From a virus (lineage: Duplodnaviria > Heunggongvirae > Uroviricota > Caudoviricetes): 5,397 bases of DNA. The translations under genes and the position numbers were made by a program. Every line of letters begins with the position of its first letter. Position 1 is the stretch's first letter. Below the pieces are notes generated by a model. It had not been told where the DNA came from. It did not search any database and saw nothing but the letters and a program-made list of their open reading frames with translations. Positions 1,210-5,397 of the stretch are shown here, piece by piece. The stretch lies in IMG/VR virus record IMGVR_UViG_2671181012_000016; one strand, 5' to 3'.

Positions 1210-1392
1210 TCAGCCTTTGGGTTCTATGCCTTCTTTGCGTAGCTTATCACGACAAGCATTTTTTACCCATGAGCTGAAATTACCAGGCCCAGCAACTTCG
1301 TTAATTTGTTGCAACAATGTGTCTTCGAAGCGGATGTTTTTCTTTGTGCTGCCGGAGCGATCAAATTTTGGTTTCACATTTTCTTCTTGCAT
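1210..1392 (-). CDS. small ribbon-helix-helix-like DNA-binding protein (putative repressor)
   Basis: 60-aa ORF convergent with the HTH gene. KKNIRFEDTLLQQINEVAGPGNFSSWVKNACRDKL fits a beta-strand/helix/helix (Arc/CopG-type) pattern. Its start codon abuts the palindromic operators and a terminator lies downstream. No clear Shine-Dalgarno, and a long + strand ORF overlaps it, so coding status is uncertain. Confidence 0.5.
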   Translation of the reverse strand: MQEENVKPKFDRSGSTKKNIRFEDTLLQQINEVAGPGNFSSWVKNACRDKLRKEGIEPKG

Positions 1393-1436
1393 TGGTACGT
1401 ACCATCGTTATAAACTGAAATTAAATGGTACGTACC
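1387..1436 (+). promoter_or_regulatory. putative rightward promoter of the replication operon with two palindromic operator sites
   Basis: Perfect 12-bp palindrome TGGTACGTACCA at 1393-1404 and a second copy of the core GGTACGTACC at 1427-1436, centres ~33 bp apart. Candidate -35 TTGCAT (1387-1392) and -10 TATAAA (1409-1414) with a 16-bp spacer that contains the first palindrome; the second palindrome lies just downstream of the predicted transcription start. Confidence 0.5.
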
Positions 1437-1465
1437 GCATTAAAAATACGCAACCATTAAATACA

Positions 1466-1502
1466 GCGAAGCCCGGTAGTGCGGGAACACTAACCGGGCT
1501 TC
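1466..1502 (+). other. long stable stem-loop in the leader of the rightward operon (possible RNA regulatory or processing element)
   Basis: GAAGCCCGGT (1468-1477) pairs perfectly with ACCGGGCTTC (1493-1502); the stem extends with AGTG (1478-1481) / CACT (1488-1491), leaving a 1-nt bulge and a 6-nt loop CGGGAA. No U-tract follows on the + strand. Confidence 0.4.
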
Positions 1503-1537
1503 TAACCACCAACGATAACGATAGTATCGAGGTAGCT

Positions 1538-1741
1538 ATGTTAAATCATACCACACACCCGCAAGGGCGGTACTCGCACGACCTGAATAAATACATCTGG
1601 CGTTTTATCGCCCTGAGCACGGCACAACCGCGCGTGATTACCATTGAGGCCACCAGCGAACAGGAAGCACGCCAGCAATCCCCGGCTGGCTACGTGATGG
1701 TATTCGCCGCCCGTATTCGTCAGGGGGTGTGCCATGCCTGA
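1538..1741 (+). CDS. small hypothetical protein, first gene of the replication operon (possibly Icd-like; tentative)
   Basis: ATG at 1538 preceded by GAGG (1528-1531). 67-aa product MLNHTTHPQGRYSHDLNKYIWRFIALSTAQPRVITIEATSEQEARQQSPAGYVMVFAARIRQGVCHA. The stop overlaps the next start (ATGCCTGA). The Icd-like assignment is from memory of small proteins at this position in P4-like elements and is unverified. Confidence 0.55.
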   Translation: MLNHTTHPQGRYSHDLNKYIWRFIALSTAQPRVITIEATSEQEARQQSPAGYVMVFAARIRQGVCHA

Positions 1742-4174: not shown

Positions 4175-4184
4175 ACTTATGGAA

Positions 4185-4417
4185 TAACTGTTCACCACTG
4201 TTCACTCTGTCATAAATATCTTTTATATCAGTATATTATAGGGTGAACAGTTATTTATGAACTGTTCACCAAACTATTCACTGTTCACCTTTTTGATTGT
4301 TTATTGAGCTTCAAGGGTGAACAGTGGTGAATAGTTGGTGAATAGTTTTTGTGAAACTGTTCACCCCTTAACATTATGAATTAAAAGATAAAATATCAAA
4401 AGGTGAACAGGTGAAGG
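4185..4417. repeat. replication-origin iteron array (P4 crr/ori-like), TGTTCACC octamers in both orientations with AT-rich spacers
   Basis: Perfect TGTTCACC at 4189-4196, 4263-4270, 4282-4289 and 4358-4365. Perfect inverted GGTGAACA at 4252-4259, 4316-4323 and 4402-4409. Variants TGTTCACT 4199-4206, TATTCAC 4275-4281, GGTGAATA 4326-4333 and 4337-4344, GTGAAGG 4411-4417. AT-rich stretches at 4211-4240 and 4371-4400. Two tandem ~65-75 bp units (4186-4260, 4261-4324) share the layout ACTGTTCACC ... CTGTTCAC ... AT-rich ... GGGTGAACAG. Confidence 0.85.
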
Positions 4418-4461: not shown

Positions 4462-4707
4462 ATGACAGCGAAGCACACAAAAAAATCACAATCGCACGCC
4501 CTTGATTTGACGGAACACTGGTTAAGGGTGTCGATAAAAATCATCGACCGCAACGCCGGGGAAGGATATGCGAAAGCACATCCCGAACTGATTAGCGCAT
4601 TCATGACAACGGCAGCTGCAAACTTTGCCACGCTGACAGAGCGGGAGATTGCCGAAGCGGAACAGGTAACAACCATCAACGTTAAAACCGGAGAGGTGAA
4701 ATCATGA
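4462..4707 (+). CDS. hypothetical protein
   Basis: 81-aa ORF with a weak RBS. Its stop TGA (4705-4707) overlaps the ATG (4704-4706) of the SSB gene as ATGA, which supports it being a real coupled gene. Confidence 0.5.
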   Translation: MTAKHTKKSQSHALDLTEHWLRVSIKIIDRNAGEGYAKAHPELISAFMTTAAANFATLTEREIAEAEQVTTINVKTGEVKS

Positions 4708-5114
4708 CAGCACAGATAGCCGCTTACGGGCGGCTGGTGGACGACCCGCAGGTAAAACAGACCAGCAAGGGCACACCGATGACGCTGGCGCGTATGGCGG
4801 TATCACTGCCATGCAGTCAGGCACAGGACGGACAGGCGACGTTATGGTTATCGGTCATCGCATTTGGCAAACAGGCCGACCAACTGGCAGGACATGAGAA
4901 AGGCAACGTAATCAGCGTATCCGGCGTGATGCAGATAAGCCAGTGGACCGGACAGAACGGGGAGACGCGTCAGGGTTATCAGGTCATTGCCGACAGCGTA
5001 ATCAGTGCGAAAACGGTGCGACCAGGCGGGAACAGACGCAAAACCACAGGCACACAGGGTAATCAGCCACCAGCGGGAGGCGATGACCCTTACGGTGATG
5101 ATATTCCGTTCTGA
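4704..5114 (+). CDS. ssb: single-stranded DNA-binding protein (SSB)
   Basis: 136-aa product with strong RBS GGAGAGG (4689-4695). The N-terminal ~110 aa have SSB/OB-fold character (IAAYGRLVDDPQVKQTSKGTPMTLARMAVSL ... WLSVIAFGKQADQLAGHEKGNVISVSGVMQISQWTGQNGETRQGYQVIADSVI). A Gly/Pro/Gln-rich linker leads to the acidic C-terminal tail DDPYGDDIPF, matching the DDDIPF tail of E. coli SSB. Confidence 0.9.
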   Translation: MTAQIAAYGRLVDDPQVKQTSKGTPMTLARMAVSLPCSQAQDGQATLWLSVIAFGKQADQLAGHEKGNVISVSGVMQISQWTGQNGETRQGYQVIADSVISAKTVRPGGNRRKTTGTQGNQPPAGGDDPYGDDIPF

Positions 5115-5124
5115 GGGGGTGACG

Positions 5125-5397
5125 ATGGTACATGACCGCATAGCGGAAGAACTCGAAGCGAAAGGATTTTACCGGAGGGCGGCGGCGCGATGGGGTGAAG
5201 TCATGATGCTGGTGGAGACAGACAAGGAACGGCATCACATCACGATGCGACGGCTGGAATGTTCCAGGAAGGCACAGAGGCCACCGGAGCCGCCTGATAA
5301 TTTCGGAGACCTGAGAAATGCAGTTAATCGCACTTGTGCCGAAATGGGTATAGATGGTGCTGGTGATGAAATATGGCGCAATTACCAGGACAGCTAA
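5125..5397 (+). CDS. PerC-family transcriptional regulator-like protein
   Basis: 90-aa product from ATG 5125 with RBS GAGGGGG (5113-5119) just after the SSB stop. N-terminal IAEELEAKGFYRRAAARWGEVM resembles, from memory, the N-terminal WRRAA-containing motif of PerC/Pch regulators. Stop TAA at 5395-5397. The in-frame upstream extension to 5005 overlaps ssb and is not used. Confidence 0.6.
   Translation: MVHDRIAEELEAKGFYRRAAARWGEVMMLVETDKERHHITMRRLECSRKAQRPPEPPDNFGDLRNAVNRTCAEMGIDGAGDEIWRNYQDS

Follow-up and report, generated by a model that had tools for sequence, protein, structure and literature searches.

A predicted antisense RNA opposite the leader of the replication operon in P4-like satellites of Escherichia coli

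The window, by which we mean the whole 5,397-nt stretch of DNA that was analysed, is 100% identical by BLAST to E. coli L73 and is a P4-like/PICI-type satellite of E. coli. An integrase gene lies upstream, beyond the window, and is followed by a 238-aa ORF, an AlpA-like HTH gene, a minus-strand gene of the YlcI/YnfO type, an Icd-like gene (icd), a 106-aa ORF (orf106, 1734-2054), a DUF4222 gene, a D5/P4-type primase-helicase gene, an array of iterons, and genes for SSB and PerC; capsid genes are found further along the element. Adjacent genes overlap at two places in the operon: the icd stop overlaps the start of orf106 in ATGCCTGA (1734-1741), and the DUF4222 and primase genes share ATGA at the primase start. 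The hairpin that is the subject of this analysis lies between the divergent small DNA-binding gene and the Icd-like gene that heads the primase operon. The genes and plus-strand features that surround it are as follows.

1210..1392, minus strand: small gene of the YlcI/YnfO family (DUF3950), NF041551 at 31.1 bits and PF13132 at 33 bits, located 3' of the predicted RNA on the same strand
1387..1436, plus strand: predicted operon promoter region, with -35 TTGCAT (1387-1392), a spacing of 16 nt, -10 TATAAA (1409-1414) and a start near 1421
1529..1540, plus strand: Shine-Dalgarno sequence GAGG (1529-1532) and start codon (1538-1540) of icd, read from the sequence; the putative target of the antisense RNA
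1538..1741, plus strand: Icd-like gene of 67 aa, the first of the operon, NF033153 phage_ICD_like at 70.1 bits against a cutoff of 25

The putative operon promoter was missing from a consensus promoter scan because its hexamer lacks T6. It is flanked by two exact copies of the palindrome GGTACGTACC (1394-1403 and 1427-1436), where 0.10 would be expected by chance. The palindromes are likely to be operators, and the divergent protein of the YlcI/YnfO family (1392..1210) may be what binds them; transcriptional and RNA controls appear to be layered on the operon.

Several other features of the window were recorded. Three direct repeats containing CTGGCTA (about 717-795) and an 18-nt inverted repeat (814-831/848-865) lie just 5' of the AlpA-like gene and across its start, and are possible regulatory sites. 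A strong intrinsic terminator on the minus strand (GGCGACCGCCCCCGGTCGCC then TTTGTTTTAT, 1096-1115) is found in the gap that follows the AlpA-like gene, 3' of the YlcI/YnfO gene. Immediately 3' of the primase-helicase gene, positions 4183-4410 are dense with direct and inverted CTGTTCACC/GGTGAACAG iterons, an array that is likely to be the replication origin of the element. The ORF at 5125-5397, which adjoins the SSB gene (4704-5114), carries a full-length PerC transcriptional-activator domain (PF06069, 142 bits).

The original prediction described an interrupted 14-bp stem with a 1-nt bulge and a 6-nt loop, placed between a transcription start near 1421 and the ATG at 1538. Promoter and ATG were found in those places, and the stem is exactly as claimed: GAAGCCCGGT (1468-1477) pairs with ACCGGGCTTC (1493-1502) over 10 bp, AGTG (1478-1481) pairs with CACT (1488-1491) above a bulged A1492, and the loop is CGGGAA (1482-1487). 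As plus-strand RNA, the 72 nt from 1466 to 1537 fold at -29.9 kcal/mol, far below shuffled sequences (-16.4 ± 2.8, n = 200; z -4.8), none of which equaled it. The minus strand of the same 72 nt is more stable than the plus strand, folding at -37.5 kcal/mol (z -6.3) into two adjacent hairpins. A near-perfect palindrome in a single sequence cannot reveal which strand is functional, and the hairpin looked like a plus-strand feature because the window's variant is Watson-Crick throughout the stem.

Relatives were collected by scanning IMG/VR with a leader word and, independently, with the Icd-like protein, which yielded 101 distinct variants of the RNA core. A scan of genome contigs with the Icd-like protein produced only four loci, two of them spurious (Arthrobacter and Rhizobium), because exact peptide words were too strict, and IMG/VR was used instead. 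About 160 distinct variants of related elements entered the comparison in total. In all 101 variants the 74-nt RNA is more stable as the minus strand, at a mean of -35.3 kcal/mol versus -22.4 on the plus strand, and the same is true of 72 of 74 members of the second of the two sequence types described below. The stem of E. coli CFT073 (AAGCCCCGCAAGTG/CACTCGCAGGGCTT) illustrates the asymmetry: it differs from that of the window, and both of its imperfections, C·A when read on the plus strand, are G·U pairs on the minus strand.

Several lines of evidence from alignments indicate that the structure is selected on the minus strand, since compensatory and G·U-type changes in both hairpins make sense only there. 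In alignment A1 (n = 47 sequences) the two-hairpin structure pairs 92.3% of cells, compared with 34-57% in slid controls, and 10 pairs, comprising 76 cells, are changed on both sides. None of 500 shuffles came up to A1 in percentage paired, covariation score or number of double-change cells (76); four of 500 matched the 10 pairs. When the same 27 pairs are scored on each strand, the minus strand has 958 Watson-Crick, 213 G·U and 98 mismatched cells, and the plus strand 958, 16 and 295; the plus-strand mismatches are C·A or A·C, and become G·U on the other strand. The MAFFT column alignment is out of register at the terminator apex for some variants, which lowers the percentage paired of the apical pairs in A1; model-based alignment copes better with the apex and is biased towards structure. 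A covariance model, R1, was built from A1 and applied to loci obtained with a different leader word, giving an independent alignment (A2) of 63 distinct sequences that had not been used in building the model. There, 91.6% of cells are paired, 15 pairs (128 cells) are changed on both sides (0 of 500 shuffles), and G·U cells number 205 on the minus strand versus 32 on the plus strand. Ten of the 15 pairs in the 3' hairpin change on both sides in A1, and likewise in A2. Unguided RNAalifold returned the same two helices, with the basal 10 pairs of the 3' hairpin found de novo, at an alignment energy of -55.0 for the minus strand versus -39.6 for the plus strand. In the outer stem of the 5' hairpin, G·U and U·G pairs that would be mismatches on the plus strand are kept in 46 and 43 of 47 sequences. 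The conserved secondary structure is therefore specific to the strand opposite the target gene, as is expected of a cis-encoded antisense small RNA.

Read on the minus strand, from 5' to 3', the predicted RNA and its promoter consist of the following parts.

1545..1553, minus strand: predicted promoter of the antisense RNA, sigma-70 type, an extended -10 (TGgTATGAT) within icd codons 3-5 that lacks a good -35
1503..1537, minus strand: 5' hairpin and linker, AGCUACC-U-CGAUA-CUAUCGU-UAUCG-UU-GGUGGUU-A, which holds the anti-Shine-Dalgarno CCUC (complement of 1529-1532)
1468..1502, minus strand: 3' (terminator) hairpin, GAAGCCCGGU-U-AGUG(U) UCCC (G)CACUACCGGGCUUC, identified by folds, covariation and G·U asymmetry
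1455..1467, minus strand: tail after the 3' hairpin, GCUGUAUUUAAUG, a weak, interrupted U-tract in the window

We propose, with a probability of about 70%, that the stem-loop serves as the Rho-independent terminator of a cis-encoded antisense RNA of approximately 75-82 nt transcribed from the minus strand. The RNA is predicted to start at A1537 (± 2). On genome records it would fall at about 1158832-1158926 of NZ_CP033378.1 (E. coli L73) and about 3007425-3007520 of NZ_CP158446.1 (CFT073), on the record's plus strand in both. In 139 distinct relatives a -10 hexamer precedes the conserved 5' AGC of the RNA by exactly 7 nt; T1, A2 and T6 of the hexamer are present in 138, 139 and 138 of them, and positions 3-5 vary (TATGAT, TATGCT, TATAAT, TAGACT, TATCAT and others). 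A TG precedes the hexamer in 73 of the 139, which are essentially the type-1 relatives, the type to which the window belongs. Since the promoter lies inside conserved coding sequence, part of its conservation could be driven by the protein. The hexamer nevertheless persists in phage mEp460, in which truncation has left the opposite ORF with 14 codons, and where that ORF encodes a different protein (a BREX-linked ORF).

At the other end, the ten nucleotides after the stem contain a mean of 4.95 T on the minus strand versus 1.0 on the plus strand (121 variants). Most relatives have a stronger tail than the window, for example GGGGCGUUGUUUUUUG or GGGCUUUGUCUUUUC, and have it exclusively on the minus strand. 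With UUCGCUGUAUUU, the window ranks among the weakest variants in this respect, and termination here may therefore be partial. The claim that the hairpin is not a simple intrinsic terminator holds for the plus strand, where the stem is followed by UUCUAACCACC with no U-run and where a scan of the window for terminators did not return it; it fails for the opposite strand, on which the hairpin is most likely the terminator of a short RNA. In silico, the RNA has a promoter and a terminator of its own, the latter with a weak tail in the window. Homology between elements stops just past the tail: BLAST similarity typically sets in at the hairpin or within it, upstream of which the sequences are unrelated. 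The RefSeq records that were checked carry no ncRNA annotation at the module.

The predicted RNA is fully complementary to the leader from 1458 to 1537, including the Shine-Dalgarno sequence GAGG at 1529-1532. A second, equally common type of relative carries the anti-Shine-Dalgarno (CCUC or CUCC) in the loop of the 5' hairpin, and its RNA begins 3 nt inside the ORF. Placement is constant even among loci that were fetched by the Icd-like protein alone, 80 of 80 having exactly one R1 match, antisense and ending 5 nt into the ORF.

Other explanations of the hairpin have to be weighed against this one. The original prediction proposed RNA-level control in the leader of the replication operon, by analogy with P4 immunity. 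Control at the RNA level is supported, but the plus strand is not, the C·A and A·C oppositions of the plus strand being G·U on the minus strand in relatives. An element acting on the plus strand, in the operon mRNA, could be an attenuator, a processing site, a 5' stabiliser or the target of a trans-acting RNA, as in P4 immunity. It would suit a hairpin that is nearly perfect and very stable in the window and that does sit in the predicted 5' UTR of the operon, and some plus-strand hairpin forms in all variants (the mean of -22.4 kcal/mol for the 74-nt region), as the leader is bound to be complementary to the antisense RNA. However, the plus strand of relatives has three times as many mismatched cells as the minus strand (295 vs 98) and few of its G·U pairs (16 vs 213). 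It also lacks a U-tract, with 1 T in 10 nucleotides, and the specific analogy with P4 immunity is not supported: at E ≤ 1 the window has no C4/CI or isrK/seqA match, and the search for complements of loop and stem returned only chance-level matches of 9-10 nt to 1458-1540 elsewhere in the window. We consider a plus-strand element very unlikely. Still more improbable is a strand-specific DNA hairpin, a site of single-strand initiation, recombination or protein binding. The hairpin does reside in a replicating mobile element, and since DNA hairpins tolerate G·T pairs, strand asymmetry alone is no proof of RNA. A DNA hairpin would nonetheless leave unexplained the -10 at fixed distance, the U-rich tail, the anti-Shine-Dalgarno hairpin and the constant placement over the ribosome-binding site, and the iterons of the likely origin are elsewhere (4183-4410).

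A minus-strand transcript could also be the 5' leader of the mRNA of the YlcI/YnfO-type gene (1392..1210), with the hairpin as an attenuator, that is, a terminator regulated by read-through; this is compatible with a dual role. In most of the distinct contexts that were inspected, the RNA is indeed followed on its own strand by a small gene of the ribbon-helix-helix (RHH) type, usually at a distance of 50-120 nt. By eye, about three quarters of the 40 commonest downstream ORFs listed are YlcI/YnfO-like, the rest being spurious picks of a naive first-ORF finder. The terminator tail is weak in the window, and in L005, the one two-copy element that was examined, each copy precedes such a gene. 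Against this, most variants combine a strong GC stem with a U-run, and the gap between hairpin and gene holds the divergent operon promoter and the operators, which is where the gene's own promoter would be expected. Moreover, elements cease to be homologous immediately beyond the tail, and one RNA variant can be followed by unrelated sequences in different elements, which indicates that the RNA travels with the icd/ash leader and not with the repressor gene. We regard the attenuator as an unlikely account, and the terminator of an independent antisense RNA as the better one.

If the hairpin is such a terminator, a mechanism can be outlined. From position only, we infer that the RNA would repress icd and exert polarity on the primase operon. 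It would pair with the operon leader, and the duplex would occlude the ribosome-binding site of icd, probably be a substrate of RNase III, or both. A block of icd translation would be polar on the replication genes; such polarity is expected because the downstream ORFs overlap, at the icd/orf106 and DUF4222/primase junctions. Transcriptional interference could come on top of this, since the two promoters face each other across about 116 bp. Overall, a threshold would be expected, with leaky transcripts of the leader silenced in the resident satellite until induction gives an excess of mRNA. It is the family name only (host cell division inhibitor Icd-like) that would suggest a role for the Icd-like protein as the toxin of a type I toxin-antitoxin system.

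At least 1434 of 5426 complete genomes of E. coli, CFT073 and Nissle 1917 among them, carry the unit of YlcI/YnfO gene, hairpin and Icd-like gene, with up to seven copies per genome. R1 also matched elements of E. ruysiae and Tenebrionibacter, the Klebsiella satellite vB_KppS-Ant, one Klebsiella phage, and a truncated copy in the lambdoid phage mEp460. The type-2 leader matches 117 plasmids from nine enterobacterial genera, one of which (P1-like IncY) was checked with the model. In the phage collection the window's leader had no match and the type-2 leader had seven partial matches. The prediction of a widespread, unannotated family of cis-antisense RNAs is well supported; the family is unannotated in genomes because it is absent from Rfam 15.

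Several individual loci deserve description. In phage mEp460_ev081 (L330, 1850-2081) a degraded copy scoring 27.5 bits lies between a 449-aa minus-strand gene and the hok/rem/Q region, with the 14-codon truncated ORF and a fragment of a repressor-like gene. A second antisense-RNA module is found 750-870 nt from the first, on the same strand, in L005 (1612-1707), L197/L243, L225, L267, L272, L279, L281 and L307; the second copy in L005, the sole one examined, precedes a second small repressor-like gene and faces what is apparently the remnant of an ORF start. The same locus, a sister element from E. coli RM14516, has plus-strand matches to isrK (66 bits) and C4 (77.6 bits) at 2694-2879, between an 'ash family' ORF and the Icd-like gene, and since the antisense RNA lies upstream, it would have two RNA control systems on one leader. 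On the IncY plasmid NZ_CP026200.1 (L333, 2750-3470), a 59-aa repressor-like gene, an antisense RNA (47.6 bits) and an ORF starting MAGSQHTQT head a WYL/BrxR-BREX defence operon; the plasmid is P1-like. The position of this cassette at the head of a BREX operon suggests that the switch is portable.

Sequence variation within the RNA is concentrated in two places. The loop of the 5' hairpin is hypervariable between elements, with a nucleotide diversity (pi) of 0.27, and the terminator apex reaches 0.46; for comparison, the flanking stems and linker have a pi of 0.01 and third codon positions of icd 0.08. Loop and apex may set the specificity of an element, and their hypervariability fits a role as specificity determinants, though it is not proof of one. 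Loop types of co-resident copies differ in nine of 10 genomes, and random pairs would mostly differ too (36 combinations in 80 loci). We suggest tentatively, as an idea that we would rate as doubtful, that the RNA is a specificity-coded determinant of immunity or incompatibility within a portable 'RNA-gated switch' cassette that has been recruited to other operons, including BrxR-BREX on P1-like IncY plasmids, and that perhaps shares ancestry with SymR. The parts of the proposed cassette are the small repressor gene, the face-to-face promoters, the antisense RNA and the first gene. If this were true, co-resident satellites would regulate themselves independently, and a resident element could silence newcomers of the same type in trans.

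The silence of Gram-negative PICI and P4-like satellites before the arrival of a helper is partly understood, the known players being AlpA and, in some of them, a P4-type CI RNA. Post-transcriptional control would be a further layer if a conserved antisense RNA covers the ribosome-binding site at the head of the replication operon. C4 and isrK matches, but not this antisense RNA, have already been reported in some Gram-negative PICIs (PMC10111431). Neither Rfam 15 nor the openly searchable full-text literature, including PMC10111431 and PMC3326304, was found to contain a description of this antisense RNA.

A scan of the window with all of Rfam gave one weak match at the site, to SymR, and no other family at E ≤ 1, hence no sequence or covariance-model similarity of the Sar kind. 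SymR, the antisense RNA of the symE/symR type I toxin-antitoxin pair, is a proven antisense regulator. The match is full length, on the minus strand from 1537 to 1465, at 34.7 bits (E = 7e-4), against a gathering threshold of 61. One further variant (L004) scored 35.3 bits, only two of the variants tested matched, and CFT073 and five other variants had no SymR match at E ≤ 0.1. The likeness extends to size (77 nt vs about 78), to the two hairpins, the ..UGRUUAG.. linker and the GUGUU..CGCAC apex of the 3' hairpin, and to a weak or absent tail. In both cases the promoter lies within the target ORF, the 5' end is 0-3 nt from the start codon and the Shine-Dalgarno sequence is covered; the RNA starts AGCCAU in type-2 relatives and AGUCAU in SymR. 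Identity is 50/82, compared with 40.6 ± 2.9 for shuffles. With its ends as predicted from sequence, the RNA has the SymR-type architecture of about 77 nt, two hairpins, a 5' end at or just inside the start codon and a covered Shine-Dalgarno sequence. Membership of the SymR family (RF01809) was nonetheless rejected: the match is below threshold, it is not reciprocal (R1 misses true symR at E ≤ 1), and the target is different, being an Icd-like gene (NF033153, 70 bits) that heads a replication operon and not the SymE endoribonuclease. No LexA context was seen, and the true symE/symR locus, read for comparison, looks different.

The layout of the locus has a close counterpart in the Sar RNA of phage P22 immI, reportedly described by Liao, Wu, Susskind and co-workers in 1987. 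Sar is a short antisense RNA whose promoter lies inside the operon, facing the main promoter, and which overlies the ribosome-binding site of the gene that follows; beyond the main promoter lies mnt, a divergent repressor gene of the ribbon-helix-helix type. The order of repressor gene, operon promoter, antisense RNA and first gene is the same here, whereas the target is icd-like instead of ant and the host is a satellite, not a temperate phage.

Immunity exerted at the RNA level on the leader of an early operon is what the C4 RNA of phages P1 and P7 and the CI RNA of P4 would share with the predicted RNA; in P1, C4 directly targets the ribosome-binding site of icd and affects downstream genes by polarity. 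C4 and CI, however, share a strand with their targets, arise by processing of the leader transcript, and act by way of short complementary boxes that occur repeatedly (seqA/seqC vs seqB; a'/b'), whereas the RNA predicted here is on the opposite strand and fully complementary. The models applied were RF01695 for C4/CI and RF01394 for isrK, which detects seqA-like targets. With no match to either at E ≤ 1 and no second complementary site in the window, P4-type immunity was rejected for this element. In 13 related loci neither C4 nor isrK reached its gathering threshold, and L005 alone has both. The antisense RNA is apparently undescribed, and its predicted logic resembles that of SymR/symE, P22 Sar/ant and P1 C4/icd.
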